Source of the DNA: a virus
Strand: one strand, 5' to 3'
Virus record (IMG/VR): IMGVR_UViG_3300003375_000013
Coordinates: 32,001-96,000 of that record
Length of the DNA: 64,000 nt
The position numbers and the translations under genes were made by a program. Of the stretch, positions 23,314 to 40,618 are shown piece by piece; position 1 is the first letter of the stretch, and each line of letters starts with the position of its first letter. The notes below the pieces were generated by a model. That model had not been told where the DNA came from. It saw only the letters and a list, made by a program, of their open reading frames with translations, and searched no databases.

Positions 23314-23389
23314 TAGTATTAAAGAATTGTTGTATGAAGTAAAGTAAAAAGTGTTCCGGACGCGGGTTCGACTCCCGCCAGGTCCACCA
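23312..23389 (+). ncRNA. ssrA: Two-piece tmRNA, acceptor piece (5' boundary approximate)
   Basis: T-arm GCGGG-TTCGACT-CCCGC, then CAGGTCC-A-CCA, which pairs with GGGCCTG at 23473 giving G3-U70. Confidence 0.9.
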
Positions 23390-23472
23390 TAAACATATTA
23401 CTAAATCGGCGACCGGTAAAACGTTGATTACCCGGAGCGGGAAGTCTGGATACCTTGTAGTATGTTTTTGAT

Positions 23473-23697
23473 GGGCCTGTCCAGGTTTCGACGGGGCAAC
23501 AAGTAACTGCATGGACAACTCGTCACCAGATAGACGTTAAAAGTGAAAAAACCTAGACGCAAACGCATCTAAAGGCGAAGTAACTGTATCAGCTGGCAAA
23601 GGAATTCGTTTCTCTGCTCGTTCTTCAGTGAAAGCCGAAACTTTCGCAGTTTAATCACTGGCGTAGCGGAGTTATCCGTAGTAACAGAAAATAGCAA
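23473..23697 (+). ncRNA. ssrA: Two-piece tmRNA, coding piece (3' boundary approximate)
   Basis: 5' GGGCCTGTCCAGGTTTCGACGGG; resume context AAAAAACCTAGAC-GCA; tag frame 23559-23654. Confidence 0.9.
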
Positions 23698-24980: not shown

Positions 24981-25253
24981 ATGTCTAACGAACCAGATGA
25001 TTTAGAATCGTCACCCTTTGAATGGGAACCTTCAGTGCATGAAGCCCATTGGCAAAATATGCCAGAATTCAAACAGCCAGACAATGGTCCATATCGTCAG
25101 ATTATCATAAGTTTTGAATCTGCAGAAGATGTTGAAGAATTCGCTAACTTATTGAAACGATCAATTACTAATAAAACTAAAAGTTTGTGGTTTCCAGATC
25201 GTCCACGCGGCGTGTTTAAAGACTTATTCTGGGCAGAAGGAGAGGATGAGTGA
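24981..25253 (+). CDS. Small partner protein of phage TAGT-type DNA-modification loci
   Basis: WQNMPEFKQ...IIISFES..DVEEF...ITNKTKSLWFP; directly upstream of two glycosyltransferases. Confidence 0.65.
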   Translation: MSNEPDDLESSPFEWEPSVHEAHWQNMPEFKQPDNGPYRQIIISFESAEDVEEFANLLKRSITNKTKSLWFPDRPRGVFKDLFWAEGEDE

Positions 25254-26125
25254 ATCCTCAGTTTCCAATCTATATCGTAAGTAAGGGTCGTGCGGATAGT
25301 AGATTAACTAGTAGAGCACTTGAAGCAATGAAAGTGCCGTACTATATCGTAATTGAACAATCTGACTATGAAGCATATTCTGCGGTAATCGATCCTACTA
25401 AGATTCTTATTCTTGATCAAGAATACAAACGTCAGTATGATACATTTGATGATCTTGGATTAACCAAATCAACCGGACCAGGCCCGGCTCGTAACTTTGC
25501 ATGGGATCATAGCATTGAAAATGGTTTTGAGTGGCATTGGGTTATGGATGATAACATCAATGAATTCTTACGATTAACCGACAATAAAAAAATACGTTTC
25601 GGTGACGGAACTTGTTTTGCTATAATGGAAGATTTCTGCCTACGATATAGTAATGTGGGCATGGCTGGTCCTAACTACAGAGCATTTGCTCCTCAAAATG
25701 CAGCAATACCACCGTTTGTACTTAACACTAGAATTTACAGCTGTAATCTAATCAGAAATAACACTCCATACCGCTGGCGTGGTCGTTATAATGAAGATAC
25801 TGATATTAGTCTACGTATGTTGAAAGATGGACTTGTAACTGTACAATTCAATGCTTTTCTTCAAGATAAGCTAAGAACACAAGTATTAGGCGGTGGAAAT
25901 ACAGCAGAATTTTACGCCAAAGAAGGAACAGAGGCGAAATCAAAGATGCAAGTAGCTATGCATCCAGATGTTTCTAGACTTACCTGGAAATTCGGCAGAA
26001 TTCACCATGAAGTAAATTATCATCCATTCAAAGATATTCCTCTAAAATTCAAAGATGACTATGTTCCAGTAGAAGGCGTAAACAACTACGGACTTAAATT
26101 ATCTACCGGTTGGACACCTCACTAA
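25250..26125 (+). CDS. TET-associated / GREB1-like glycosyltransferase
   Basis: IYIVSKGRA, GPGPARNFAWDHS, WVMDDNI, YSCNLIRN, RYNEDTD, GGNT. Confidence 0.8.
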   Translation: MNPQFPIYIVSKGRADSRLTSRALEAMKVPYYIVIEQSDYEAYSAVIDPTKILILDQEYKRQYDTFDDLGLTKSTGPGPARNFAWDHSIENGFEWHWVMDDNINEFLRLTDNKKIRFGDGTCFAIMEDFCLRYSNVGMAGPNYRAFAPQNAAIPPFVLNTRIYSCNLIRNNTPYRWRGRYNEDTDISLRMLKDGLVTVQFNAFLQDKLRTQVLGGGNTAEFYAKEGTEAKSKMQVAMHPDVSRLTWKFGRIHHEVNYHPFKDIPLKFKDDYVPVEGVNNYGLKLSTGWTPH

Positions 26126-26135
26126 ATATCTCATT

Positions 26136-26936
26136 ATGATAGATAACATCTTTATTCCCACTCTTGGAAGATCTGATAACCAGATAACATACAATAATTT
26201 GTGTGATAAATGGAAGAGTAAAACTATTCTTGTCGTCCAAGAGCACGAAGCGCATCTATACAAAGATTACAACATTCAAGTTCTTCCATCTCATATAAAA
26301 AGCATAGCTCCTACAAGAGAATGGATAGCACAGCAGAATATTGGTAAAATTTACGGTGTATTAGATGATGATCTAAAGTTTTACCGCACCCGAATGAAAG
26401 GCGAGACTTTTGATAAATCAAAAAGAAAGATGACAGACGAAGATTTTGATGAGTTAGAGAACACTATATGTTCGTGGCTGAATGATGATATCGCAGTATG
26501 TGGATTATCAAATGCTGTTAGACCACCAAATATCGTAGACGAATATGAAGATATCAAGTCTGTGAGTCAATTATTCTTTTTTGACGGTAGAAAGATACCA
26601 GTGTATGATATAAGCTGGAATGATTGTATCGTTACTGAAGACACTCATGTGTTATTGCAGTTGACAAAGAAAGGTTTTAAAAGTAGAATATCAAATAGAT
26701 TCAGATATGAGTCAGCACCTCCAGCGATGGCAGGTGGATGTTCAACATTCAGAACTATAGAATTACAGAACGAAGCTAACTTAACCTTGTTTAAATTACA
26801 TCCTGGTTTAGTTAGATTAGTGGAAAAAGAAGTAACAAGAGGTGGGTTCGCAGGTAAAACTGCGATCCATGCGGTCATACAGTGGAAAAAGGCATACCAA
26901 ACAAGTATGCTAAATAATCTTTATGATTCTGTATAA
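26136..26936 (+). CDS. Second TAGT/GREB1-like glycosyltransferase
   Basis: IFIPTLGRS, IAPTREWI, VLDDDLKF, TEDTHVLLQL, GGCS. Confidence 0.7.
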   Translation: MIDNIFIPTLGRSDNQITYNNLCDKWKSKTILVVQEHEAHLYKDYNIQVLPSHIKSIAPTREWIAQQNIGKIYGVLDDDLKFYRTRMKGETFDKSKRKMTDEDFDELENTICSWLNDDIAVCGLSNAVRPPNIVDEYEDIKSVSQLFFFDGRKIPVYDISWNDCIVTEDTHVLLQLTKKGFKSRISNRFRYESAPPAMAGGCSTFRTIELQNEANLTLFKLHPGLVRLVEKEVTRGGFAGKTAIHAVIQWKKAYQTSMLNNLYDSV

Positions 26937-27077: not shown

Positions 27078-27236
27078 ATGAAAAACATAAAACTTTCCAT
27101 ATCGTATCAGTTGCCTCAGACATCAGCGTCATGCTGGAGTCCGGTAGCAGCCTTACGCTCAGAAAGTCATAATGGATTTAATATGATTGAAACAGGCAAA
27201 GATTATAGTAGGGTTCGACGAGGATGGGATGTTTAA
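27078..27236 (+). CDS. Putative leader peptide (52 aa, all 20 amino acids)
   Basis: MKNIKLSISYQLPQTSASCWSPVAALRSESHNGFNMIETGKDYSRVRRGWDV; lies between a promoter and a terminator. Confidence 0.55.
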   Translation: MKNIKLSISYQLPQTSASCWSPVAALRSESHNGFNMIETGKDYSRVRRGWDV

Positions 27237-27263
27237 GCAGTAGCTAGCATCGTAAACTTTGAG

Positions 27264-27295
27264 AACCCTGAACTAGAACTTCAGGGTTTTTTTTA
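27264..27295 (+). terminator. Intrinsic terminator, candidate attenuator
   Basis: AACCCTGAA-CTAGAAC-TTCAGGGTT followed by a long T run; the 5' arm can alternatively pair with 27206-27216. Confidence 0.85.
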
Positions 27296-27401
27296 TTTGG
27301 CAGTAGTGTAGTAGGAAACGAGATCCTAGCCCGCACTTAAAACATGGGCAAATGGGCGGACTAGATGATGGATTTCCTCTTGTGGGATGAAAAACTCTAG
27401 C

Positions 27402-27470
27402 GTATTAAAGCATATTGGGATCGGCTCTAACGAGACTTCATAAGATGAGGAACTAAGTATGCTTTAATAC
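27402..27470 (+). ncRNA. Conserved-helix RNA cassette F
   Basis: GTATTAAAGCATATT/AGTATGCTTTAATAC helix enclosing two hairpins. Confidence 0.6.
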
Positions 27471-27494
27471 CGACATTCGCAAGAGTGTCGTAAT

Positions 27495-27578
27495 CGCGAG
27501 GTGGCAGAGTGGTTGAATGCGGGGGACTGCAAATCCCTTTCGAAAGACACGTAGGTTCGAATCCTATCCTCGCGTCCA
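27495..27578 (+). tRNA. tRNA-Cys(GCA) with expanded variable region
   Basis: CGCGAGG/CCTCGCG, U73, CCA, loop CTGCAAA. Confidence 0.92.
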
Positions 27579-27594
27579 TATTTTTAAATAGTAG

Positions 27595-27623
27595 TTGACA
27601 ATTAAAACAATCTCATCTATAAT
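27595..27623 (+). promoter_or_regulatory. sigma70-type promoter
   Basis: TTGACA-17-TATAAT. Confidence 0.85.
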
Positions 27624-27710
27624 ATCTGTATAGTAAGTAATTCAGTTGAAAGCAACTTACATCACTGTAGGATTACTACAGTATAAGTACTGTCGTTAAA
27701 AGGATGCAGT

Positions 27711-27833
27711 ATGAAAAATTATGTTGTAGAATATCAAACAGAACAAGAAGCGGTTAAAGAATTTCACCGTACATCAATTAAGTTCTTATGTGATTTAATT
27801 GCGTTAGGTTTTATAATTTATTTGTTTCATTAG
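27711..27833 (+). CDS. Small peptide (40 aa) with hydrophobic C-terminus
   Basis: MKNYVVEYQT...LIALGFIIYLFH; SD AAGGA within a hairpin. Confidence 0.45.
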   Translation: MKNYVVEYQTEQEAVKEFHRTSIKFLCDLIALGFIIYLFH

Positions 27834-28038
27834 AATCCCGGCGTCCCCAGTCGTTATTAATAGGGCGTGAATTAACTCCACGATAAAGTTAAGGGTGCTT
27901 ACGATCTACCTTAGAGTCCCTCTGTCGGGAGCCTGAAAAAATCGTAGGGTGTTGCTGAACATGCCCATACTCATAGAGAATAATCAGACGGACAGGGTAG
28001 ACAACTCATGTAGGGGCTAGAGGGATTTAGTAGCCTAC

Positions 28039-28152
28039 ACCATATTGAAGTACATTCAAAGGCGAAGCGCAAGCCGAGTGGTGGACATAGCGTTGCTCCT
28101 AGAAGAGCAATGTTGACAGGTTCGAATCCTGTGGAGTGTATTTCAATATGGT
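28039..28152 (+). ncRNA. Conserved-helix RNA cassette A (head contains a tRNA-like T-arm)
   Basis: 19-bp ACCATATTGAAGTACATTC/GAGTGTATTTCAATATGGT with two G-U pairs; head has ACAGG-TTCGAAT-CCTGT. Confidence 0.7.
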
Positions 28153-28354
28153 TTGTGTGCTACCGCAAGTAGACCCGCCCAGAATAATACGGATCGCTAT
28201 TCGGTGTTGTTCATGAGAAAGCAAGGTAAGGCTGTCCCAAGAGTAAAGAGAGCGTGAGGGGATAGACACAAATCATAAAATCGGCCCATGTTCCCACCGT
28301 GCGGCAACCGAGGTTAAATAAAGCCAGGACGAATGCTGTCGTTAACGGTGGGGT

Positions 28355-28430
28355 TCATATTGAAGTACATTAAGGGTGGCATAAGTTTGATAAGCCAAGA
28401 AATAATCCTTCATAGTGTATTTCAATATGG
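28355..28430 (+). ncRNA. Conserved-helix RNA cassette B
   Basis: 18-bp TCATATTGAAGTACATTA/TAGTGTATTTCAATATGG; 40-nt head. Confidence 0.7.
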
Positions 28431-28539
28431 TTAGTACACAGTGAAAAACGCCGACCCTGCCCGACTAGTCATCGGGAAAGTCGGGGTCTAGTAGCTACGA
28501 ATCCCGACAATAGGCTTTTGACCGAGCCGACGATAGGGA

Positions 28540-28616
28540 ACCATATTGAAACACATTAACCTCGCCGCGAGTGCGAGTTAGGAAATGATTGCCTGTTTAG
28601 TGTGTTTCAATATGGT
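28540..28616 (+). ncRNA. Conserved-helix RNA cassette C
   Basis: 20-bp ACCATATTGAAACACATTAA/TTAGTGTGTTTCAATATGGT; two-hairpin head. Confidence 0.7.
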
Positions 28617-28663
28617 AGCCCTGTTCAAGTGAAATGGTCACACGCCCTTTCTTGAATGGACTG

Positions 28664-28772
28664 TTACCATATTGAAGTGTATTAAACGCCAACAAGAAGA
28701 AGGCGGTCCAGCGTCAACTGGGCGAAGTTGCGTTTGACGGTGCAAAGGATTTAATATATTTCAATATGGTAA
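28664..28772 (+). ncRNA. Conserved-helix RNA cassette D
   Basis: 23-bp TTACCATATTGAAGTGTATTAAA/TTTAATATATTTCAATATGGTAA; 63-nt head. Confidence 0.7.
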
Positions 28773-28782
28773 TAAAGAATTA

Positions 28783-28860
28783 GGCCAATGGGACTGCATG
28801 GTGTGGTCGCCCGCCTGTCACGCGGGATATCGATGGGATCGTTACCCATATTGGTCGCCA
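28783..28860 (+). tRNA. tRNA-Asp(GTC)
   Basis: GGCCAAT/ATTGGTC, G73, CCCGC-CTGTCAC-GCGGG; T-loop ATCGTTA. Confidence 0.9.
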
Positions 28861-28867
28861 AAGTTAT

Positions 28868-28945
28868 CCTCGTTGAGATCCAGTGTTATGGTCGGGTGTT
28901 TTACTACACTTTAAGCTGTGGTTAGAATCCACAGGACGAGGGCCA
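28868..28945 (+). tRNA. Atypical tRNA-like gene, anticodon unassignable (6- or 8-nt loop)
   Basis: CCTCGTT/GACGAGG, G73, CCA, T-arm CTGTGG-TTAGAAT-CCACAG; anticodon arm GGTGT-TTTACT-ACACT. Confidence 0.6.
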
Positions 28946-28948
28946 AGT

Positions 28949-29120
28949 TTTGTAAGTGTTAGCAAAAGAGAAAGCCGCAGAGATGCAAACTTGCGGTAAG
29001 TTGGGCCTAATTAGCCTAGTAGCAAACAAGTATCTTCCAAGTAACGTACCCTCGACAGTCAGGTACCCTAGTTTTATGACTCGAATGGTTTCAATAGTGA
29101 GCGGTGAAACTACTTACAAA
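28949..29120 (+). ncRNA. Unassigned multi-hairpin structured RNA
   Basis: Closing helix TTTGTAAGT/ACTTACAAA enclosing CCGCA/TGCGG, GTACC/GGTAC and GTTTCA/TGAAAC hairpins. Confidence 0.5.
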
Positions 29121-29168
29121 TTCATTTTTATTCTTGCTACACCCTAATCTTTATAGTAAATAATAACA

Positions 29169-30641
29169 ATGTATCATGGAATAATCTTATGCGGTAGTAG
29201 GAATGACAGCGCAGGCAGAAATATCGCAGGCTATCGTCTACGCACATCTGCAGAGAAATTCAATTATGATAACTTAGTTATTGATTGCGCTACAGCAATG
29301 ACCCAAGCTGAGTTAGAACTATTACTAGATAATGTCATTACTACTAAGACATTATTTTTAGGTGTCAGTACAGTTTGGTTAGATCGTCCACACAATGCCC
29401 ATGGTGATATTGAATGGATTAACAAAGATTTTTTTGATAGAATTCGTGCTAAGTACCCACAGATAAAAATTGTCGCAGGCGGCAATGGTGTACTAAGAAT
29501 GCCTGGTGCTCGTGATATATATAACTCAGCAGACTGGCACATTAGTGGATTTAGTGATGATAGTTTTCCTAGATTTCTAATGTTATTAGAAGGCAAGTCA
29601 GGACATCAGTTAAAGTATTTTATTGACAGCAATGGTAAAAAAACTGTAGATAGTAATAAGTTTCACACTATCGGAAATCCTGATGACATTGAAACTGTAC
29701 TAAAAGCAGATGATGATTTTTATAGTCATCAACCAATACCATTAGAAGTCAGCAGAGGTTGTATTTTTAGATGTGCGTTTTGTAATCATCCCTTTCAAGG
29801 TGCTAAAGATTACGATTCATACATGAGAACACCTACTAGTCTAAGTAACGAACTTCGCCGTAATTATGAATTGTTTGGCACTACTAGATATTCGTTGATG
29901 GATGATACATTCAATGATAGTATAGAGAAGTTAAACAGACTTGAACAAGCGATAGAATTAGCAAAGATACCAAATTTTGAATTTCAATGCTACATTAAAC
30001 CAGAGTTATTAGTAACTAAGCCCGAGATGATTCCGCAGTTGTTGCGAATGGGGCTTACTGGTGGTTTCGTTGGTATAGAAAGTCTTAGCAATCAAGCTAG
30101 ACGAGCAATGAATAAGGGAATGAATATTGATAAGGTATTACATTCTCTTACAGAGCTAACTAGCACTGGCCAAGTTAAATTAAATGCTGGATTTATAGTA
30201 GGATTGCCAGGTGATACAATAGATGATATGTATAAGACATTTGATTTTTGTAAAGCTAATCCTAAATTATTTAGATCGTGGAATTTCAGTAGCCTTGGAA
30301 TTTATAGTTATAATGATGTTGAAAAAGAATCAACATTAATAAGTCCATTAGAGCGAGATCCAGAAAAATATGGATATACAATTATTAAAAAGCCAGGCGA
30401 AAATAGTTTTTGGAAAAATGAATTTATGACATCCGTTGAATCACTTAATACAGCAGGCAAATTACTAAAACAATCGTCTGAAATTATAAAATGCGGTGGA
30501 TGGGCAATTAGTTCAGCATGGCATAATAATGTATCAGATTATGATATTGATAATAAAACAAGATTAGAATTAAATTTAGAATTAAGTGGTAGACAACTTG
30601 TTCGTGATCGTGCTATAATTACGCTTAAGAAGTTTACTTAG
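29169..30641 (+). CDS. Radical SAM protein with N-terminal B12-binding-like domain
   Basis: EVSRGCIFRCAFC, MDDTFND, VGIES, GFIVGLPGD; late promoter 6 nt upstream. Confidence 0.88.
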   Translation: MYHGIILCGSRNDSAGRNIAGYRLRTSAEKFNYDNLVIDCATAMTQAELELLLDNVITTKTLFLGVSTVWLDRPHNAHGDIEWINKDFFDRIRAKYPQIKIVAGGNGVLRMPGARDIYNSADWHISGFSDDSFPRFLMLLEGKSGHQLKYFIDSNGKKTVDSNKFHTIGNPDDIETVLKADDDFYSHQPIPLEVSRGCIFRCAFCNHPFQGAKDYDSYMRTPTSLSNELRRNYELFGTTRYSLMDDTFNDSIEKLNRLEQAIELAKIPNFEFQCYIKPELLVTKPEMIPQLLRMGLTGGFVGIESLSNQARRAMNKGMNIDKVLHSLTELTSTGQVKLNAGFIVGLPGDTIDDMYKTFDFCKANPKLFRSWNFSSLGIYSYNDVEKESTLISPLERDPEKYGYTIIKKPGENSFWKNEFMTSVESLNTAGKLLKQSSEIIKCGGWAISSAWHNNVSDYDIDNKTRLELNLELSGRQLVRDRAIITLKKFT

Positions 30642-30652
30642 AAACAAATAAC

Positions 30653-30692
30653 GGAGTAGAAGCATCAATGGTGATGCAGCTGACTGTAAATC
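30653..30692 (+). pseudogene. 5' half of a disrupted tRNA-Tyr(GTA)
   Basis: GGAGTAG..GCATC-AATGGT-GATGC-A-GCTGA-CTGTAAA-TC, then abrupt loss of structure. Confidence 0.8.
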
Positions 30693-30725
30693 TACAACTG
30701 TAAACGATAATACATAAATAAAGTT

Positions 30726-31463
30726 ATGGATTATTATTTACACTACGAAAAGTTAATACAGCGAGCAAAATCTAGAATATTAGATGATAAGAAGGAAACA
30801 CATCATGTTATTCCAAGATGTATGGGCGGCACTGATGATAAATCTAATCTAGTAGAGTTAACTCCAGAAGAGCATTATACCGCACATCTTCTATTAACTA
30901 GGATTTATCCCACTAATAGAAAATTAATCAATGCTGCGGCAATGATGATTCCTGGTAGACAGTCTAATAAATTATACGGATGGCTTCGCAGAAGATTTCA
31001 AGATAGACAAAGCGAACTACAAACAGGAGACGGGAATTCTCAGTTTGGAACCATGTGGATATTTAATTTAGAGTTAGAAGAATGTAAAAAAGTACCAAAG
31101 TCTAATCATACACCAAATGGCTGGCAAAAAGGTAGAGTAGTAAATTTTGTATCCTATAAAAATGAACTAATAAAGAAAGAACAGAAAAATATTCTGTACT
31201 CCCAAAGAAAAGAATTTTTGTTAGAATATCAGCAACAAGATAAGTTTAAAAAACAACAAGAACGAGAAATAACAAAAAGAGAATATAAAGAATATATTTT
31301 AGGATTATATGAGGAATTTAAGGCAGGCAACTATTATTCTATTAGTGAATTTCATAAATTAGCCAATGTTTCAGTTTCAAGAATGACCTTGAGTAACTAT
31401 TGGAGAAAATGGGTGCCAGAATATAAAGAAAATTCCAAAGAAGCTAAAAGATACAGGATGTGA
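30726..31463 (+). CDS. HNH homing endonuclease
   Basis: ETHHVIPRCMGGTDDKSNLVELTPEEHYTAH; GNSQFGTMWI-type repeat. Confidence 0.9.
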   Translation: MDYYLHYEKLIQRAKSRILDDKKETHHVIPRCMGGTDDKSNLVELTPEEHYTAHLLLTRIYPTNRKLINAAAMMIPGRQSNKLYGWLRRRFQDRQSELQTGDGNSQFGTMWIFNLELEECKKVPKSNHTPNGWQKGRVVNFVSYKNELIKKEQKNILYSQRKEFLLEYQQQDKFKKQQEREITKREYKEYILGLYEEFKAGNYYSISEFHKLANVSVSRMTLSNYWRKWVPEYKENSKEAKRYRM

Positions 31464-31469
31464 AGATTT

Positions 31470-31556
31470 GGATTGGTATACCTCTAAGGACGGGGCCGTG
31501 ACTGTAAATCACGTGGTTTTATACCTGGCAAGGATCGTTACCTTGACAATCCACCA
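31470..31556 (+). tRNA. tRNA-Tyr(GTA)
   Basis: CGTGA-CTGTAAA-TCACG, long variable arm, A73, CCA; T-loop ATCGTTA. Confidence 0.88.
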
Positions 31557-31562
31557 AGTAAT

Positions 31563-31637
31563 GCAGCTATCGTCTATCGGTTAGGACTCAGGGTTTTCAT
31601 CCCTGCAAGAGGAGTTCGATTCTCCTTAGCTGTACCA
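31563..31637 (+). tRNA. tRNA-Glu(TTC)
   Basis: CAGGG-TTTTCAT-CCCTG; GCAGCTA/TAGCTGT; CCA. Confidence 0.9.
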
Positions 31638-31645
31638 GTTTTAAT

Positions 31646-31738
31646 GGGTAGTAATGCAGCGGGGTTGGTCCTGCGACTGGCCTTGAAAACCAGGTTCTCT
31701 GTAATGGGGATGGGGTTCGACTCCTCTGCTGCCCGCCA
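31646..31738 (+). tRNA. tRNA-Ser(TGA)
   Basis: Loop CTTGAAA, long variable arm, G73, CCA. Confidence 0.9.
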
Positions 31739-31886
31739 AGTAACTACTGTTGAGAGACAGTGGCTAGCCGATAAGTTAACTGACAAGATTGCCTAATTAA
31801 CAATCTTAGTTAATTTATTAACTCTCTTAGTGGAGGATTTCCTGTGCCACTTAAAATAAGACGCAGGAGCCAAATTTTAAGTTTAC

Positions 31887-31978
31887 GGAACGGTGGCCGA
31901 GTGGCCTAAGGCAGCAGGTTGCTAACCTGTCGTATACAGCAATGTGTACCGTGAGTTCGAATCTCACCTGTTCCGCCA
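31887..31978 (+). tRNA. tRNA-Ser(GCT)
   Basis: GCAGG-TTGCTAA-CCTGT, long variable arm, G73, CCA. Confidence 0.93.
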
Positions 31979-31980
31979 AT

Positions 31981-32075
31981 GGTAGATAGCACTGGAGTGC
32001 GGCGGGCCCTTATAAAGCCCGGAGACTGGTCAGATGGGCTGGAACGGCAGGGATCGTAACCCTGATCTACTACCA
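31981..32075 (+). tRNA. tRNA-Ile(TAT), atypical (short D-loop, long variable region)
   Basis: GGTAGAT/ATCTACT, A73, CCA; loop CTTATAA; T-loop ATCGTAA. Confidence 0.7.
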
Positions 32076-32081
32076 AATATT

Positions 32082-32158
32082 GCGTCCGTAGCTCAACTGG
32101 ATAGAGTTCTGGTCTTCGAAACCAGCTGTTGGGAGTTCGAATCTCTCCGGACGCACCA
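32082..32158 (+). tRNA. tRNA-Arg(TCG)
   Basis: CTGGT-CTTCGAA-ACCAG; GCGTCCG/CGGACGC; CCA. Confidence 0.93.
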
Positions 32159-32165
32159 CAGTAAT

Positions 32166-32242
32166 ACCTGTTTAGCTCAGCTGGTTAGAGCACCATCTTG
32201 ATAAGGTGGGGGTCTCTGGTTCGATTCCAGAAACAGGTACCA
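32166..32242 (+). tRNA. tRNA-Ile(GAT)
   Basis: CCATC-TTGATAA-GGTGG; ACCTGTT/AACAGGT; CCA. Confidence 0.93.
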
Positions 32243-32256
32243 GTATAAATACTATT

Positions 32257-32763
32257 ATGAAAATCATAGAACTATTAACAGAATCTACAAGCCAGTTTGA
32301 TCCATTATTAATTGAATTTTGGAAATCTAGTAGCCCAGCAGATTTGAAATATTTCTTTGTTCAAAACAACTGCTATGGGGCATCGCAGTCTTTTATGGAA
32401 TTTCTTGAAAATAAAGGAATTCACACAGCAGAAATTGTACCAATTGGCCGTGTACGCAATGGTAAAAAAACTGAAGGATGGTTTCATGCAGATGTTCCAG
32501 ATACAACATTAGATGCATTTACTAAGGAAGATATAGCTGCATGTAAAAGTCAAGGTTTAGATCCTCGTAAAAAAGCAGATCGAATTGCATATATTACCAA
32601 CAACAATCTTGAAGACGAGTTCAAATGGATTCCCCATAGTTGGGTAGAAGTTCGTGGACAAATTTTAGATCCCAGCGGATTTTACATTGACGGTAAGAGC
32701 GGTCAGTTCGACCATTTAGTACACAACAAATCAAATTTATCACAACGATATCAATATTTTTAA
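32257..32763 (+). CDS. Hypothetical protein with a transglutaminase-like Cys-His-Asp arrangement
   Basis: MKIIELLTES start 5 nt after TATAAATA; NNCYGAS...PHSWVEV....LDPS. The ORF-track start lies inside a tRNA. Confidence 0.6.
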   Translation: MKIIELLTESTSQFDPLLIEFWKSSSPADLKYFFVQNNCYGASQSFMEFLENKGIHTAEIVPIGRVRNGKKTEGWFHADVPDTTLDAFTKEDIAACKSQGLDPRKKADRIAYITNNNLEDEFKWIPHSWVEVRGQILDPSGFYIDGKSGQFDHLVHNKSNLSQRYQYF

Positions 32764-32766
32764 AAT

Positions 32767-32841
32767 GGGTGCTTCATCTAATTGGCAAGATTGTGGATTC
32801 CAAATCCATTCATCTAGGTTCGAGTCCTAGGGTGCCCGCCA
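32767..32841 (+). tRNA. tRNA-Trp(CCA)
   Basis: GTGGA-TTCCAAA-TCCAT; G73; CCA. Confidence 0.9.
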
Positions 32842-32861
32842 AATTAACCTGAGAGGTCGTA

Positions 32862-33332
32862 ATGAAGTTCAACATACCACAAATCAAAGAGTTCATAGAT
32901 AGACAAGGTCCCAACACTAAAATTTATATTGGTGTTGACTCGGAGCGAATTAAAAAAGGTACACAATGGTACGCTGACTATACGGCAGCTATCGTTGTTC
33001 ACTTAGATGGAAAACATGGTTGTAAGCTGTTTGGTGAGGTAACTCGTGAAAGAGATTACGACCGAGTTGACAAACCTAACACTAGGCTTATGACCGAAGT
33101 TTTTAAAGTTTCGGAACTGTATCTTAAACTAGCAGAAGTTCTGGAAAATCGTGAGGTTTCGGTACATTTAGATATTAATCCGAATGATCAACATGCCAGC
33201 TCTAATGTAGTGGCACAAGCTATTGGATATATTCGCGGTACTTGTAATGTAGAGCCACAAGTTAAGCCACATGCATGGGCTGCTTCGTATGCTGCGGATA
33301 GGTTTAAAGGTTTAAAAGTTGCTAATTCTTAA
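32862..33332 (+). CDS. RNase H-like YkuK (DUF458) family protein
   Basis: IYIGVDS, RLMTEV, VHLDINPN, KPHAWAASYAAD. Confidence 0.82.
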   Translation: MKFNIPQIKEFIDRQGPNTKIYIGVDSERIKKGTQWYADYTAAIVVHLDGKHGCKLFGEVTRERDYDRVDKPNTRLMTEVFKVSELYLKLAEVLENREVSVHLDINPNDQHASSNVVAQAIGYIRGTCNVEPQVKPHAWAASYAADRFKGLKVANS

Positions 33333-34004
33333 AAATGAAGGATCACGGCCTTTATGAAATCCTTCCGGAATTGGATCACAAACAGGATGCTTACGACTTA
33401 AAGTTCCGTTTGTGATCCAGCAAAATTTTCCAATAGATTTTTTACGGCCTTTATCCATAGCATCTAATACAGATTGTGGTCTCTTTTTTCCGGCCATTGG
33501 ATTAGGTTTTCCTGCGCTAACTTGTTCTTGTCGTATTTTACTTAAGTGTTCGGAGCGAATCTGTTTTAATTCTTTTGCTTTTTCATTTCCGTAAATTTCT
33601 TCATAAGTTTTGCCTTTAAGAATTCCTTTTCTGCCTTTGGAAATATTAGTGCGAGATTCAGGAGAAGTTGAACTAAAACGATTATGACCAAGTGTTTTAT
33701 CAAAATAATGTTTGTTTAAACATAATGGATTTTTAATATTTTCTTTAATTAAATCTTGTTCAAACCAATAAGCATCATCACTAGCTGTTTCAGTGTAAAA
33801 TTCAGCAACAACCGACCATATAAAGTCATTAAAGTTGTCTTTTACTAGCTGTGCAGATGAACATGTGTTATAATGAAATCCTAAATCTAAATGAGATTGA
33901 ATTTTATTTTTTTCACGATATCCGATATAAAATTGACCGGTAACTTTATGAATGCCAATATAGACATAAGGATAATTTTTATTTTTATATAAATGATTTT
34001 TCAT
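33312..34004 (-). CDS. GIY-YIG-type homing endonuclease
   Basis: YPYVYIGIHKVTGQFYIGYR, FEQDLI, LNKH, NPMAGK; start probably ATG 34004, 5 nt after TAAATA. Confidence 0.82.
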   Translation of the reverse strand: MKNHLYKNKNYPYVYIGIHKVTGQFYIGYREKNKIQSHLDLGFHYNTCSSAQLVKDNFNDFIWSVVAEFYTETASDDAYWFEQDLIKENIKNPLCLNKHYFDKTLGHNRFSSTSPESRTNISKGRKGILKGKTYEEIYGNEKAKELKQIRSEHLSKIRQEQVSAGKPNPMAGKKRPQSVLDAMDKGRKKSIGKFCWITNGTLSRKHPVCDPIPEGFHKGRDPSFLRISNF

Positions 34005-34075
34005 ATAAGTATTTATACATCTAGACATTAATCAGAGAGAAAAATGAGAGTAACAACTAAAAAGGATGTAAAATT

Positions 34076-34321
34076 ATGCCATTAGATAATAGCATGTATC
34101 CCACCATGCAGGAAGATGTGTGGATGCCACGATTATCAGTTTATGATAAGTGTTTTGCTTGGTTACCACATCGGTGTACTCAAAGTAACTGTGTAATATG
34201 GTTACGGTGGGGTCGTAGATATCAGCGGTGGGTTGGATATGGGGATGGTCGTTACTTGAAATACATATGGTTAACTGAAAAGGAATACCTAATGTATTGT
34301 TTAAAGGCAGGCAATGAGTAA
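34076..34321 (+). CDS. Hypothetical Trp/Arg-rich small protein
   Basis: FAWLPHRC...IWLRWG; SD AGGA. Confidence 0.6.
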   Translation: MPLDNSMYPTMQEDVWMPRLSVYDKCFAWLPHRCTQSNCVIWLRWGRRYQRWVGYGDGRYLKYIWLTEKEYLMYCLKAGNE

Positions 34322-34775
34322 CATCACAAAAGGTCGTAAGAGTTATGACAGTACTATGGGTAACACCATAGTACCGTTCTTTAATCGCAATGTAACACCT
34401 TATCCCACTGAAGCTGGTGGTCCTAAGTTTGATCTAGTTCCAGTTACACAACAAAAAGACATTATGATTAATAATGCCCGCTTGTATGCTCAGCAGGAAT
34501 ATGATAGAATAATGGAATTAGTAGCAGTATTAGAAAGACAAGCAGGAGATATTAAGCGTCGATTAGACATGACTGACTTAGTACACAGTTGTAAATATGA
34601 TTTTCAGCTGAGTATGGGTCATGTGTATTGGGTAGTTAAAGATACACGCAAGAATATAACGATACTAACTGGCATGTCGCCAACTGATTGGACTAGTGGT
34701 GTTCCAGTTGATTATGAATATTTAATACAAGTAAGATATCTAGGAGATCACTCCTGGATGGAAGTAACTGAGTAA
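34314..34775 (+). CDS. DUF2452-like protein
   Basis: TPYPTEAGGPKFD, AQQEYDRIMELVAVL..QA, YDFQLSMG. Confidence 0.65.
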   Translation: MSNITKGRKSYDSTMGNTIVPFFNRNVTPYPTEAGGPKFDLVPVTQQKDIMINNARLYAQQEYDRIMELVAVLERQAGDIKRRLDMTDLVHSCKYDFQLSMGHVYWVVKDTRKNITILTGMSPTDWTSGVPVDYEYLIQVRYLGDHSWMEVTE

Positions 34776-34780
34776 GTAAT

Positions 34781-34863
34781 GCCCCGGTGGTGGAACGGTC
34801 TACACAGCGGTCTTAGAAGCCGTCCTTAATTGGGTGCGAGTTCGAATCTCGCCTGGGGCACCA
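34781..34863 (+). tRNA. tRNA-Leu(TAG)
   Basis: GCGGT-CTTAGAA-GCCGT, variable arm, A73, CCA. Confidence 0.93.
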
Positions 34864-34868
34864 TATAT

Positions 34869-34953
34869 GCGAAAGTGGAGAAATTGGTATATTCACTAGA
34901 TTCAAAATCTTGCGCTGCAAGGCATGCGGGTTCGAGTCCCGCCTTTCGCACCA
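34869..34953 (+). tRNA. tRNA-Leu(CAA)
   Basis: Loop TTCAAAA, variable arm, A73, CCA. Confidence 0.92.
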
Positions 34954-34959
34954 TAATAT

Positions 34960-34988
34960 TTGACAGTAATAGTAAAGCACTATATAAT
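34960..34988 (+). promoter_or_regulatory. sigma70-type promoter inside the tRNA array
   Basis: TTGACA-17-TATAAT. Confidence 0.8.
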
Positions 34989-34998
34989 AGTAACATGC

Positions 34999-35084
34999 GG
35001 GGATGTGGCGAAATTTGGTATATGCAAGGCGCTTAAAACGCCTCGCCGTAAGGCATGCCGGTTCGAGTCCGGCCATCCCCACCA
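34999..35084 (+). tRNA. tRNA-Leu(TAA)
   Basis: AGGCG-CTTAAAA-CGCCT, variable arm, CCA. Confidence 0.93.
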
Positions 35085-35103
35085 AAGATAGTTGAAGTAC
35101 AAT

Positions 35104-35174
35104 GCGGGATTAGTTTAATGGTAAAACTACAGATTTCCAATCTGTTGTTATCAGTTCGATTCTGATATTCCGCT
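35104..35174 (+). tRNA. tRNA-Gly(TCC), CCA not encoded
   Basis: ACAGA-TTTCCAA-TCTGT; GCGGGAT/ATTCCGC; U73. Confidence 0.9.
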
Positions 35175-35194
35175 CATTTTACTTAGATTTGTGA

Positions 35195-35266
35195 GCAGGA
35201 TTAATTCAGCGGTAGAATGTCTCGTTGCCAACGAGAATGCCATCGGTTCGATCCCGATATCCTGCT
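35195..35266 (+). tRNA. tRNA-Gly(GCC), CCA not encoded, acceptor extended by flanking pairing
   Basis: CTCG-TTGCCAA-CGAG; GCAGGAT/ATCCTGC; U73. Confidence 0.9.
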
Positions 35267-35354
35267 CACAAATCTAAACAGAGTACTCCTTATATGACAG
35301 TTGAACAAGGTCATATAAGGGAAGGACAGTGTTCAACCTGTCCGAGAGTTTTTA

Positions 35355-35432
35355 GGGGGATGGGTCTGCTCGGAGTGGACACCTGCTTTGCAAGCAGGAA
35401 TCAGAACGGTTCGAATCCGTTATTCTCCACCA
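35355..35432 (+). tRNA. tRNA-Ala(TGC)
   Basis: CCTGC-TTTGCAA-GCAGG; G3-U70; CCA. Confidence 0.93.
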
Positions 35433-35437
35433 ATTAG

Positions 35438-35466
35438 TTGACATTAAATACAATATCATGTATAAT
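35438..35466 (+). promoter_or_regulatory. sigma70-type promoter
   Basis: TTGACA-17-TATAAT. Confidence 0.82.
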
Positions 35467-35485
35467 GTTTACATAGTAAGTCTGT

Positions 35486-35564
35486 TGCGGAGTAGGGGAG
35501 TCTGGTCGTCCCCGCTAGTCTCATAAGCTAGAGATCGTTGGTTCAAATCCTTCCTCCGCTACCA
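35486..35564 (+). tRNA. tRNA-Met(CAT), initiator-like (U1/U72 mismatch)
   Basis: CTAGT-CTCATAA-GCTAG; lacks the three G-C anticodon pairs; weak T-stem. Confidence 0.75.
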
Positions 35565-35584
35565 TTTTATAACAAGGAGTTAAC

Positions 35585-35803
35585 ATGAAAGCAGTTTTAG
35601 CAATCGTTGTAGCATCACTAGCACTTACTGGATGTGTTGTTGCTGATCCATATTATGTTCAGCCTCGTCCTGTATATGTTCAACCTGCACCAGTTTATGT
35701 GCAACCTAGGCCTGTATATGTAGCTCCTCCTGTTCGCTGTACGTATGTACAACAATGGAATGGTTACACAAGACAGTATCAAAATGTTCGTGTTTGTAGA
35801 TAA
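35585..35803 (+). CDS. Small lipoprotein with PXPV-like repeats
   Basis: Signal peptide with lipobox LTGC; repeated VYVQP(R/A)P. Confidence 0.8.
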   Translation: MKAVLAIVVASLALTGCVVADPYYVQPRPVYVQPAPVYVQPRPVYVAPPVRCTYVQQWNGYTRQYQNVRVCR

Positions 35804-35811
35804 GGAATAAA

Positions 35812-36039
35812 ATGTTTATCAAAGTATCTAATGCAGCAAAAGATTTTCTTCATAATCCCTTGTACATCAAGGCTGATGTAATTCTAACAGTATACGAAGG
35901 TACTAGTGTTAGAAATGAAGGAACCCCTGATGAATATCAGGAACATGTGACTTTTATCTTTAGTCCTACTCATGGTACTTGGGAAGTTCTAGATAGAGCC
36001 GAGGATGTATACAAGCAATTAGTACAATTAGGTTTATAG
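35812..36039 (+). CDS. Hypothetical protein
   Basis: 75 aa, SD AAGGA. Confidence 0.75.
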   Translation: MFIKVSNAAKDFLHNPLYIKADVILTVYEGTSVRNEGTPDEYQEHVTFIFSPTHGTWEVLDRAEDVYKQLVQLGL

Positions 36040-36053
36040 TAAAGCAGTTTATT

Positions 36054-36132
36054 CTCCGGTTCGCCTAATCTGGTTATGGCACTTGCTTTGGGAGCAAGAA
36101 TAATGTGAGTTCAAATCCCACACTGGAGACCA
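36054..36132 (+). tRNA. tRNA-Pro(TGG)
   Basis: CTTGC-TTTGGGA-GCAAG; C1-G72; CCA. Confidence 0.93.
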
Positions 36133-36159
36133 TTAATGTAGTTAAAATTTAGGAAATAT

Positions 36160-36414
36160 ATGTCAATTAAAACAGCAGCTAGCCTTATCGATATCAATGT
36201 TTGCGTTAATCAAACAGGCAATAAAAGATATGATTTAGTATTAATCGCAGCAGCGAGAATGCGTGAACTGAAGTTTCATAGGATGGGAACAGATAAGATT
36301 ACACGATGGTCAGAAGTATTACTTGAAATTCAGGAAGGTCGCATTGATCCAACTGAATATTTGAGAAAAATTGAAGCAGTACGCCCTAAAAAACAAAGTA
36401 GGAAGTACAAATAG
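36160..36414 (+). CDS. rpoZ: RNA polymerase omega subunit-like protein
   Basis: GNKRYDLVLIAAARMREL aligns by eye with the RpoZ motif GNRFDLVLVAARRARQ; C-terminal VLLEIQEGRI. Confidence 0.7.
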   Translation: MSIKTAASLIDINVCVNQTGNKRYDLVLIAAARMRELKFHRMGTDKITRWSEVLLEIQEGRIDPTEYLRKIEAVRPKKQSRKYK

Positions 36415-36420
36415 TTTAGT

Positions 36421-36496
36421 TGGAGATTAGCCAAGCTGGTAAGGCAACGGATTTTGATTCCGTCATACACAGGTTCGAACCCTGTATCTCCTGCCA
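36421..36496 (+). tRNA. tRNA-Gln(TTG)
   Basis: ACGGA-TTTTGAT-TCCGT; weak 1-72 pair; G73; CCA. Confidence 0.92.
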
Positions 36497-36533
36497 AGAA
36501 ATCAATAAATATATGTACTATTAGGAATATTCC

Positions 36534-37154
36534 ATGAAATTTAAAGAGCTATTTGAAATGCCAACTTATAACCCAAAAGAGTTACCTACAACAGATTTTA
36601 AGGTTCATTTAGTGAGCGTAGATACACTTGATCGTGATTATACCTTACTGGAAGCCATACAAGTAGGAGATAAAAAAATTATTGCGGGCTTAAAAAAGGA
36701 TAGATCAATTGCCATAATTGGACCGGCTGTTGTTCGCAATGATGGGAAAACTTCGGTAGAAGTCATGGCTCAAATTGAATTTCACGAAGGCACAGTTAGT
36801 GGCGAAGCTGGCGGTAAAGCGACACTTCAAATTTCTTTAGTAGAAGCTGCCGATAAAGTGCGAGGTTTCGGATACGGATATCAATTATATAAGATGATAT
36901 TAAATCGTGGATTCACAATCGTAAGTGATAATGTACAATATGTAGGTGGCAAAGAACTGTGGTTAAAGATTATTCGCAAAAGTGCTGCTGATAAGCATAA
37001 TGTGTTTATTATGCAACAAGGCAAATACATGCGTGATGAAGCTGGAAATCCAATAGTATTTGATGGTGTTAATATTTCACCAGAAGATATCTGGAGTACA
37101 GATAAGAAAAGTGAAAAGCATTTTTACACTTTACTAGTAGCAAAAAATATCTAA
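36534..37154 (+). CDS. Hypothetical protein with a GNAT-like motif
   Basis: MKFKELFEM start; ISLVEAADKVRGFGYGYQLY resembles acetyl-CoA binding motif A. Confidence 0.55.
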   Translation: MKFKELFEMPTYNPKELPTTDFKVHLVSVDTLDRDYTLLEAIQVGDKKIIAGLKKDRSIAIIGPAVVRNDGKTSVEVMAQIEFHEGTVSGEAGGKATLQISLVEAADKVRGFGYGYQLYKMILNRGFTIVSDNVQYVGGKELWLKIIRKSAADKHNVFIMQQGKYMRDEAGNPIVFDGVNISPEDIWSTDKKSEKHFYTLLVAKNI

Positions 37155-37160
37155 TTTCAC

Positions 37161-37236
37161 GGATCGTTAGCTCAGCGGTAGCAGCGGCGCCCTTACAAGG
37201 CGTAGGTCGTAGGTTCAATCCCTACACGATCCACCA
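37161..37236 (+). tRNA. tRNA-Val(TAC)
   Basis: GCGCC-CTTACAA-GGCGT; CCA. Confidence 0.93.
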
Positions 37237-37242
37237 ATCAAT

Positions 37243-37318
37243 GTCAACTTAGCTGATGTGGTCATAGCAGTAGCTTGAAGAGCTTCGGAAAGTGGTTCGA
37301 TTCCACTAGTTGACACCA
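37243..37318 (+). tRNA. tRNA-Phe(GAA)
   Basis: Loop TTGAAGA; GTCAACT/AGTTGAC; CCA. Confidence 0.88.
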
Positions 37319-37342
37319 ATCAATGGTGACTGTGATAATAGG

Positions 37343-37418
37343 GGTGACCATAGTGTAAAATAGGCACCTAACTCTGTGAAAGTTATAGTCTGAGTGAGAC
37401 TTCTCAGTGGTCACCCCT
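37343..37418 (+). tRNA. tRNA-His(GTG) with G-1, 8-nt T-loop, ending CC(T)
   Basis: TAACT-CTGTGAA-AGTTA; GTGACCA/TGGTCAC; C73. Confidence 0.8.
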
Positions 37419-38243
37419 ATTGTCATAGTCATCAACTTCACGAACAAGTTGTTCGTAGGTTATTGAAGATTTACTGTGTTTTCTTGAGTTTTTATTCTGT
37501 GGCATCAGATCGCAATTTACTGGATGACGAATGTAGTATTCATCGTAGTTATTGAGCATAGCTTCACTGACTGATACACGATGATCACGAGACAATCCGT
37601 TCATATTTATACCGCGTTTATTATTACCACCGGCATTATAGAACCCAACCCGTGTTAGTTCATTTAAATCGAATAGGTCAGGATAGTGAAACACATTGAA
37701 CTTGAAGTAATATCTGGCCCGGTTTAGTGATTTATGTAAATGTATGTGTTCTTTACAGTAACCTATTTTATATCTGTTCACGAACTTAATTTTACAATGA
37801 CGACAAGTGTTTAGAATGAGTTTAGAGTGAGGTGCGAGTTCTTGTTTAGGCACTCGTCTATCTGCCCAAGTCTTCTTGACTTTTTCGTATAAGGCGTAGT
37901 CTCTTTCGTTGTTGTTATGAGTTGCGCTGCAACTTTGAGAACAGAATGTCAAGTGTCGTTTTTCGTATGATAGTTCCACTGAACATGCTTTGCACTGCTT
38001 AGGAGTTGTTAGATAAACCGTCCTAGAGTATTCTCTTTTACGCTTATGAGCATCAATAGCGCCTTGGTTACCACCACCTTTTTTGCCGCCATTTTTAGCA
38101 TCAAGAATAAGTTGAGGGTCACGAGCTGGACCATATTTTAGTTCATAGTCACGAGTATTAGTGCCATGATTTTTTAAATGAATTCCTGATATTTGGCCGT
38201 TGAAATCACGATGGCATATAGCACAGTTTATTATTTTATACAT
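37404..38243 (-). CDS. Zinc-finger / HNH-type homing endonuclease
   Basis: CAIC...HLKNH, CKAC...FCSQSC, LSRDHRVSV...HPVNCDLM; the last codons overlap the tRNA-His acceptor antisense. Confidence 0.75.
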   Translation of the reverse strand: MYKIINCAICHRDFNGQISGIHLKNHGTNTRDYELKYGPARDPQLILDAKNGGKKGGGNQGAIDAHKRKREYSRTVYLTTPKQCKACSVELSYEKRHLTFCSQSCSATHNNNERDYALYEKVKKTWADRRVPKQELAPHSKLILNTCRHCKIKFVNRYKIGYCKEHIHLHKSLNRARYYFKFNVFHYPDLFDLNELTRVGFYNAGGNNKRGINMNGLSRDHRVSVSEAMLNNYDEYYIRHPVNCDLMPQNKNSRKHSKSSITYEQLVREVDDYDNRGDH

Positions 38244-38292
38244 ATACTTATTTAGTCTAACTTGTAAGTTCAGTAAGTATTTGTCACCCCAG

Positions 38293-38321
38293 TTGACATT
38301 TAATTGAAAGTCAACTATAAT
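38293..38321 (+). promoter_or_regulatory. sigma70 promoter overlapped by an inverted repeat
   Basis: TTGACA-17-TATAAT; AGTTGAC..GTCAACT palindrome at 38291-38316. Confidence 0.8.
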
Positions 38322-38348
38322 AAGTACTTGTTAAACAAAGGAGCAGTT

Positions 38349-38477
38349 ATGAAAGCGTTCGGATCTAAGCGTTGCTACCACGACTGCCGTGTTGTTCAGG
38401 CAGGTAACGGTAAGAAAATTAAGTTTACCGTTGGCGTGAAGTCACGCAAAAGCGGTCGTAAAATTGAAAAGGAGTAG
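38349..38477 (+). CDS. Small basic peptide (42 aa)
   Basis: MKAFGSKRCYHDCRVV...; SD AAGGAG. Confidence 0.6.
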   Translation: MKAFGSKRCYHDCRVVQAGNGKKIKFTVGVKSRKSGRKIEKE

Positions 38478-38479
38478 TT

Positions 38480-38632
38480 ATGAAGTCTAAGATGATCGTG
38501 CCAACACTAAATCCACGAAACCCGTTCGTGATGCTGGCACATAAAAGAAGTGCGGGAAGTCATGCTAAGCCACACAAGGCTCAGCGTAAGTTAGAAAAAC
38601 AAAGGCATTGGGAGAGTAGCTCAATTTGGTAG
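38480..38632 (+). CDS. Small basic peptide (50 aa) overlapping the tRNA-Lys 5' end
   Basis: MKSKMIVPTLNPRNPFVMLAHKRSAGSHAK...; SD AAGGAG. Confidence 0.55.
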   Translation: MKSKMIVPTLNPRNPFVMLAHKRSAGSHAKPHKAQRKLEKQRHWESSSIW

Positions 38633-38686
38633 AGCAAGAAACTTTTAATTTCGAGGCTGTGGGATCATGCCCCATCTCTCCTACCA
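38610..38686 (+). tRNA. tRNA-Lys(TTT)
   Basis: Loop CTTTTAA; GGGAGAG/CTCTCCT; CCA; T-loop ATCATGC. Confidence 0.88.
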
Positions 38687-38769
38687 TTATTATATTGAAG
38701 CACATTTAAGTAGGCATGCCAACGCTAGGTCTTATCGGACATAGCCAGAGTGTGTTTCAATATAATAAT
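38686..38769 (+). ncRNA. Conserved-helix RNA cassette E, filling the tRNA-Lys/tRNA-Arg spacer
   Basis: 22-bp ATTATTATATTGAAGCACATTT/GAGTGTGTTTCAATATAATAAT; 40-nt head. Confidence 0.7.
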
Positions 38770-40011: not shown

Positions 40012-40618
40012 TATGCCATCAGTATTTCTGGTAAGTGATACACATTTTGGACACAAAGGTGTCTGCCATTTTATGCGTAAAGATGGTGAGACCAAGCTTC
40101 GTCCATGGGATACTGCCGAGGAAATGGATGAAGAAATGGTTAAGCGGTGGAACGATACTGTTCGGCCAAATGACAAAGTGTATCATCTTGGTGATGTGGT
40201 TATTAACCGCAAGGCGCTTGGTATTATGCAACGTCTTAATGGAGACAAAGTTTTAATTCGTGGTAATCATGATATCTTCCGTGACGACGAATATCGAGAG
40301 CATTTTCGTGAGCTTCGTGCGTATCATGTCATGAACGGAATGATTCTTAGTCATATTCCCCTTCACTCTGCCAGTATGGGACGATTCGGAGTTAATATTC
40401 ACGGACATCTTCATTCTGATCGTGTTATGAAACCTTCTGGGGTTAATAATAAGACTGGTGAGATTGTATACAGTGAAACAGAGATTGATAATAGATATCA
40501 TTGTGTTTGCGTAGAACAAACTGACTTTGCACCAATATTGTTTGAAGATGTAATCAAACGGATTGAGGAAGAAGGCGGCGCTGTTGGTTTCAAAAACGGC
40601 AACGGCCCCTCGATGTAG
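40012..40618 (+). CDS. Calcineurin-like metallophosphoesterase
   Basis: SDTHFGH, HLGDV, RGNHD, SHIP, HGHLH; start ATG 40012 after AAGGAG. Confidence 0.93.

Follow-up and report, generated by a model that had tools for sequence, protein, structure and literature searches.

In a tRNA array of an uncultured virus we find a family of RNA cassettes, each made of one nearly fixed helix (the handle) around a different enclosed insert. The array lies in a 64,000-nucleotide stretch of DNA (the window; positions 32,001 to 96,000 of IMG/VR record IMGVR_UViG_3300003375_000013), part of a 177-kb virus record (GC 37%, completeness estimate 51%), and comprises 24 tRNA genes and a permuted transfer-messenger RNA (tmRNA) gene, all on the + strand (ARAGORN, Rfam). 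The helix, which has a defined length, is under RNA-level selection on the tRNA strand. It occupies sites from which a spacer has to be cleared, either between a CCA end and the first base of the following tRNA or between the two pieces of the tmRNA. Whole cassettes have been gained, lost and swapped between arms that serve as short recombination homologies. We suggest, with a probability of roughly 0.5, that these are excised spacer cassettes whose stem acts as a double-stranded stalk for both processing and stabilization.

Six elements of the array fold as long hairpins closed by the common helix, with fold z-scores of -3.7 to -7.3 against dinucleotide shuffles. A covariance model, R1, was built from an alignment (A2) of 32 diverse family members. 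It matches five of the six at expectation values (E) of 1e-12 to 5e-7: cassette D (28540-28617, matched at 28539-28617, E 1e-12; z -7.1), cassette C (28354-28431, matched at 28353-28432, E 3e-11; z -5.3), cassette F (38687-38769, matched at 38688-38767, E 9e-11; z -6.3), cassette E (28666-28771, matched at 28665-28771, E 7e-8; z -6.5) and cassette B (28039-28152, matched at 28040-28151, E 5e-7; z -7.3). All five lie on the + strand, where the R1 score is 9-26 bits higher than on the - strand. The sixth, cassette A (27402-27470, + strand), upstream of tRNA-Cys, is a divergent member that is matched more weakly at 27403-27469 (22.3 bits, E 0.012, + above - strand; z -3.7); its stem has three compensated pairs relative to the consensus, and it has no CCA. 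The tmRNA spacer is matched at 23385-23476 (17.7 bits, E 0.13), and no other R1 match below E 1 occurs in the 64 kb. Thus the six elements listed in a preliminary description of the window stand, five of them clearly and one as an outlier.

In alignment A2, 98.5% of cells are paired, and both sides have changed in 8 of the 19 pairs. This covariation was matched by 0 of 500 shuffles, and slid controls pair in 29-50%. A loose search with a single arm gave 14 matches against 8.8 expected, which is no enrichment over chance; the signal of the family is in the paired arms, not in one arm alone. The inserts of the window cassettes are mutually unrelated and fall into separate sequence clusters, as the preliminary description had stated, and the compensatory changes and the retained U.G wobble that it reported hold in the window and are seen family-wide too.

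A pattern scan of IMG/VR with the outer arms found at least 119 contigs with matches, from uncultured phages of freshwater samples; other phage loci compared are referred to below by labels such as L003. The inner arms, which were outside the scan pattern, are present too in nearly all of these contigs. Together with the window, the 119 loci hold at least 228 hairpins, of which 211 are non-identical; ARAGORN recognizes tRNAs in 100 of the 120 sources, and nearly all copies lie in tRNA arrays. Helix length has a mode of 19 bp and is usually 19-21 bp. Position 14 holds a U.G wobble in 73% of copies, position 9 varies between G.U, A-U and G-C, and positions 10, 12 and 16 covary. Past position 15, where the insert begins, sequence preference stops abruptly, and one covarying pair follows. 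Positions 0-8 were set by the search pattern, so that their conservation is partly built in; additional copies in the same loci show compensated changes at these positions too. Among 187 copies in which a better-pairing strand (G.U instead of A.C) could be decided, 181 pair better on the tRNA strand and 6 on the opposite one. Selection therefore acts on the transcript and not on a DNA palindrome, which bears out the earlier proposal.

The family is undescribed, being absent from Rfam and from the literature searched. Rfam searches of the window at gathering scores, of 27200-29200 with E allowed up to 10, and of 14 loci rich in cassettes returned nothing but tRNA, permuted tmRNA and a single group I intron, so the earlier remark that no named RNA family has this layout holds. 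A group I intron match (53 bits) lies at 13185-13378 on the - strand of L021, in the tRNA array of a related phage. In the literature, the arm sequences match unrelated primers only, and the main text of a catalogue that lists about 10,000 candidate viral RNAs describes no such layout. Searches of cultured phages with the cassette region and with cassette D, the sole cassette searched, gave no match even at E 10. In bacterial and archaeal genomes the arm pattern occurs at about chance level among the matches listed; a true handle is present among these in three short metagenome-bin contigs, which are probably phage DNA.

The stem usually begins on a CCA 3' end, a feature that, like the wide spread of the family, was not part of the preliminary description. 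In 73 of the 228 copies the stem opens with a C-C-A that is itself the CCA end of an ARAGORN tRNA. CCA stands at the stem start in 155 of the 211 non-identical copies, 83 of which have no recognizable upstream tRNA. The downstream tRNA follows at the usual array spacing, 5-13 nt after the cassette. In the window, cassettes B and D start on ACCA, cassette C starts with UCA rather than CCA, and cassette E, which starts with ACCA, sits directly behind the ACCAUA that closes a 50-nt spacer RNA. Cassette F is the entire gap from the A of the CCA of tRNA-Lys(UUU) (38610-38686, + strand; ARAGORN, Rfam) to base 1 of tRNA-Arg(UCU) (38770), an exact fill that had been noticed before; the base of its stem is AU-rich in place of CCA/UGG. 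The CCA register varies with respect to the conserved core, lying 5 nt upstream in cassette F and 4 nt further in in the tmRNA spacer.

The intervening sequence of the permuted tmRNA (23386-23472, + strand; ARAGORN; Rfam tmRNA_permuted, RF04321, 108.9 bits) separates the CCA of the acceptor piece from base 1 of the coding piece, and such spacers must be excised. It retains stem positions 7-16, wobble included, and thus, unlike the other cassettes, only the inner 10-11 bp of the stem. By R1 alone it is not significant (E 0.13). Its membership, proposed in the preliminary description, rests on the tmRNA spacer of L087, which has the inner stem and shares its 42-nt insert with three canonical cassettes of L068 and L033; for the same reason a family member is placed at a site of RNA excision. 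No bacterial two-piece tmRNA spacer is known to have a handle in common with other RNAs.

On this basis a pathway can be proposed for the polycistronic tRNA transcript, in which a near-fixed helix of 19-21 bp, usually beginning at the (A)CCA end of the preceding tRNA or other RNA, encloses an exchangeable structured RNA. An endonuclease, most likely RNase III of the host, would cut within the helix; exonucleases would trim the upstream tRNA back to its CCA; RNase P would release the downstream tRNA; and the insert, closed by the remaining stem, might persist as a small stable RNA. The cut is placed inside the helix, to be followed by trimming, because the CCA register varies relative to the conserved core. 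That a functional RNA can be clamped in this manner is shown within the window by a CCA-less tRNA-Gly(GCC) (35184-35278, + strand; z -7.4), which is held in a perfect 18-bp leader-trailer helix of a sequence different from the handle. Since this is a real tRNA, leader-trailer helices must be resolvable in this system. At the neighbouring tRNA-Gly(UCC) (35089-35189), the leader and the handle's left arm have a 10-nt stretch in common, and the trailer pairs with this leader.

Two functions had been offered for the cassettes, tRNA-mimic decoys and RNase III-type processing signals. The latter fits best, given a defined helix, mostly of 19-21 bp, around an insert. An RNase III stalk is a continuous helix of about 20 bp or more around an RNA, and the handle comes to a modal 19 bp and usually 19-21 bp. 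The enzyme makes staggered cuts with 2-nt 3' overhangs and prefers certain base pairs in a proximal and a distal box. Stalks of this kind, such as the leader-trailer helices of 16S and 23S rRNA and the sites in T7 early RNA, likewise form a helix of about two turns around a stable RNA in a polycistronic precursor, and the enclosed RNA is freed by cuts in the helix, as might happen to the cassettes. The two differ in that RNase III stalks vary in sequence from site to site, whereas the cassettes reuse one sequence for hundreds of inserts in many phages, and in that the cassette stem starts on a tRNA CCA end. The window's own record and 18 handle-bearing records have no RNase III gene.

Several observations weigh against this interpretation, and RNase III is named only tentatively as the cutting enzyme. 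RNase III usually needs little sequence, and a near-invariant 17-bp sequence in very different phages exceeds what this enzyme explains; the stem would need a sequence-specific partner or recombinational homogenization in addition. The helix has no two-fold symmetry. Furthermore, a cut cannot directly make every CCA end, because the CCA registers of cassette F and the tmRNA spacer differ. Sequence rules of RNase III in vivo are among the subjects of a published study (PMC6212723).

These features might instead reflect a sequence-specific handle for one dedicated phage or host protein that binds, cuts or loads the cassettes, with the inserts as payloads of a ribonucleoprotein. This is the strongest of the alternatives, though we think it unlikely. 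The sequence is near-invariant over 17 bp, beyond what pairing demands; the helix is asymmetric; and the U.G wobble is retained in 73% of copies though C-G would be more stable, but AT-biased mutation could favour the wobble as well. The only candidate seen for such a protein is encoded within the window's tRNA array, at 32862-33332 on the + strand, and belongs to family PF04308 (DUF458/YkuK). This family has been placed in the RNase H1 clade, the literature being confined to this fold assignment, and no solved relative was found by sequence. The gene lies 0.4-6.6 kb from cassettes in 6 of 6 genomes examined and is present in 7 of 8 near-complete handle-bearing genomes. It is also among only 8 protein families common to five complete handle-bearing genomes (blastp; genomes of 98-400 kb). 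By comparison, 77 of 50,697 cultured phage records have it, those listed being of 147-484 kb (KVP40-like, DLP6, Ruegeria and Cronobacter phages). Against a partnership, Stenotrophomonas phage DLP6 (L120) has PF04308 inside a tRNA array that is devoid of handle-like repeats, one complete 400-kb handle-bearing genome is without the gene, and no cultured phage matches the arms of cassette D, the only cassette for which this was searched. PF04308 was thus rejected as the partner of the handle, since it follows large tRNA arrays and not the handle; it is a candidate RNA nuclease of tRNA arrays. The earlier picture of a constant handle with a variable payload survives, while the single dedicated protein that would recognize it stays conjectural: phage genes for RNase III and Ro are absent, and PF04308 goes with tRNA arrays generally.

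Two further observations concern genes and RNAs near these arrays. A small calcineurin-like phosphoesterase gene (40013-40618, + strand) recurs near cassettes in 30 of the 120 sources, and a metallophosphoesterase also adjoins the tRNA array of DLP6; this might reflect RNA-end healing or mere synteny. In DLP6, T-arm-like repeats occur at 7400-7460 and 12822-12899, where no tRNA is annotated, and unannotated tRNA-like RNAs probably exist in this cultured phage too.

The tRNAs that are clamped by a handle are a strongly non-random set. Lys(UUU) is the most often clamped family-wide (13 of 49), followed by Glu(UUC) (12 of 71), Gln(UUG) (10 of 49), Leu(UAG) (9 of 54) and Arg(ACG) (5 of 26); Ile is clamped too. 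Clamping was seen in none of the Met, Asp, Ser, Cys, Ala, Trp and His tRNAs, 485 in all. Of 62 distinct tRNA/insert pairs, 31 involve Lys(UUU), Glu(UUC) or Gln(UUG), where 12.7% would be expected (p about 1e-12), and the bias persists across different inserts and neighbours, although relatedness among contigs inflates the statistics. Lys, Glu and Gln tRNAs are the classic targets of anticodon nucleases. The cassettes, or tRNA-cassette fusions, might therefore protect or mimic tRNAs that are hit by anticodon or CCA-end nucleases, either through decoy inserts or by shielding the 3' end until processing. Some inserts are indeed tRNA-like, with a T-loop motif in 13 of 158 types, and cassette sets differ among close relatives in the manner of accessory counter-defence loci. 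However, most inserts lack tRNA features and none was seen to mimic an anticodon loop, Leu(UAG), Arg(ACG) and Ile are clamped as well, array order or acceptor-end sequence could explain the preference, and no defence gene or phenotype is linked to the cassettes. On balance we regard an anti-defence role as improbable, less so in a broader form in which the stem is a universal adaptor for a dedicated factor (PF04308 being the sole candidate seen) and the inserts and clamped Lys, Glu and Gln tRNAs are an exchangeable toolkit against tRNA-targeting defences, a proposal as doubtful as the dedicated protein on its own.

The inserts are highly diverse, forming 158 sequence clusters in 211 copies, with 131 singletons. 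Their GC content is 49%, against 37% for the genome, and their structure is modest but significant (mean z -0.51, p 2e-8). Several families of inserts have been conserved in contigs that are distant from one another, and their stems covary; the largest is too conserved for covariation to show. The family of the cassette F insert, which is also found in L074, L036 and L084, has maintained its hairpin despite stem changes, and the insert of cassette D is common to L003 and L027. A perfect T-arm that had been ascribed to cassette A is actually in the second element, cassette B. In the 77-nt insert of cassette B this T-arm stacks on the handle, and a long variable hairpin is present as well; in the same insert family in L003, L027 and L066 the T-arm is conserved and the hairpin varies. 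Neither ARAGORN nor the Rfam tRNA model calls this insert a tRNA, and it is tRNA-like only in its T-arm and long variable hairpin.

Comparison with L003 and L027, which are about 92% identical, shows that whole modules have been gained or lost between repeated right arms. Where the window holds cassette E, both have an empty site at which the ACCAUA end runs straight into a normal tRNA-Asp, with no target-site duplication; L003 is also without cassette C and its upstream spacer. Among twenty contigs with a PF04308 protein of 50-97% identity (at least 72% in 19), cassettes B, C, D, E and F and new cassettes occur in differing mixes or are missing altogether. Such mosaic sets in close relatives, the presence/absence differences bounded by repeated arms, the clean empty site and the many singleton inserts (131 of 158 types) would also be expected of selfish recombination modules, spread by their identical 17-19 nt arms, in which the helix only spares tRNA processing and the inserts are functionless. 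This seems no more probable than an anti-defence role, since the inserts are GC-rich and structured within AT-rich genomes, several insert families with covarying stems are conserved between distant contigs, the same insert is reused in a tmRNA spacer, and the strand asymmetry shows selection on the transcript. A DNA-level element, be it the terminal inverted repeats of a miniature transposon or a palindromic protein-binding or cruciform site, would account for inverted repeats around variable DNA and for copies gained and lost, but is highly improbable, because in 181 of 187 copies the arms mismatch as G.U on the tRNA strand but as A.C on the complementary one, the empty site has no target-site duplication, the interiors of the copies are unrelated, in contrast to those of miniature inverted-repeat transposable elements, and no transposase linked to the cassettes was found.

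Excised spacer cassettes, the reading we prefer, have parallels in known systems. RNAIII and RNAIV of phage T5 (AY543070) are RNAs of about 100 nt in a phage tRNA cluster that adjoin tRNA genes, have a predicted terminal stem of 8-12 bp around two or three hairpins, and are annotated as "stable RNA with unknown functions". They differ from the cassettes in that their stalks share no sequence with each other or with the handle, and in that no CCA is captured. They are the closest experimental analogues of the cassettes. The rnaC and rnaD RNAs of phage T4 belong to the same kind of system. The earlier suggestion that the cassettes are released as discrete small RNAs is plausible, given that the tmRNA spacer must be excised and that the T5 stable RNAs share the layout.

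Y RNAs of the YrlA type have a long terminal stem and a variable module able to mimic tRNA, occur in phages, and carry a GGUCCGA-like Ro-binding motif on the 5' strand of the stem (PMC4201824). An identity of the cassettes with Y RNAs was rejected: the Ro60 (TROVE) gene (PF05731), next to which Y RNAs are encoded, is absent from the window's own record and from 10 handle-bearing records, 8 of which are at least 90% complete, the handle has no GGUCCGA-like site, and there is no Rfam match at E 10. In the promoter-early stem-loop repeats of T4-like phages and in integron cassettes, too, short repeats bound swappable units, and relatives differ in content. Those units are protein genes and their repeats act as DNA; the cassettes, by contrast, carry small RNAs, and what selection maintains in their repeats is an RNA helix.

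Release of the cassettes as stable RNAs would give large phages a big, fast-changing and uncharacterized repertoire of small structured RNAs, and the single common stem could serve to find and purify all of them. The family is a testable model for the punctuation of phage tRNA precursors, for the removal of two-piece tmRNA spacers, and for the special treatment of Lys, Glu, Gln and Leu tRNAs; differing treatment of particular tRNAs bears on the arms race with tRNA-cleaving defence systems. The constant stem could also be a portable scaffold for small-RNA expression.

The spacers between cassettes are similar to one another. A GC-rich non-coding spacer at 27834-28038 (+ strand), possibly a separate RNA, has no open reading frame, is conserved in L003 and L027, and ends in an ACCA whose CCA falls within cassette B. 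The spacers at 28153-28353, 28432-28539 and 28618-28665 resemble it, and the folds of the inter-cassette spacers are not significant as structured RNAs (z about -1). At 28783-28860 ARAGORN alone calls a tRNA-Asp, which has an aberrant T-arm and is missed by the Rfam tRNA model at E 10; L003 and L027 have a normal tRNA-Asp at this place. A cloverleaf-like sequence at 28867-28945, which ends in GCCA and has a T-arm and an acceptor stem of 8 bp, is called by neither ARAGORN nor Rfam and is conserved in L003 and L027. Finally, the start of the array is bordered by two genes for TET-associated glycosyltransferases and one radical-SAM gene (25250-26936 and 29169-30641), which suggests hypermodification of DNA bases.

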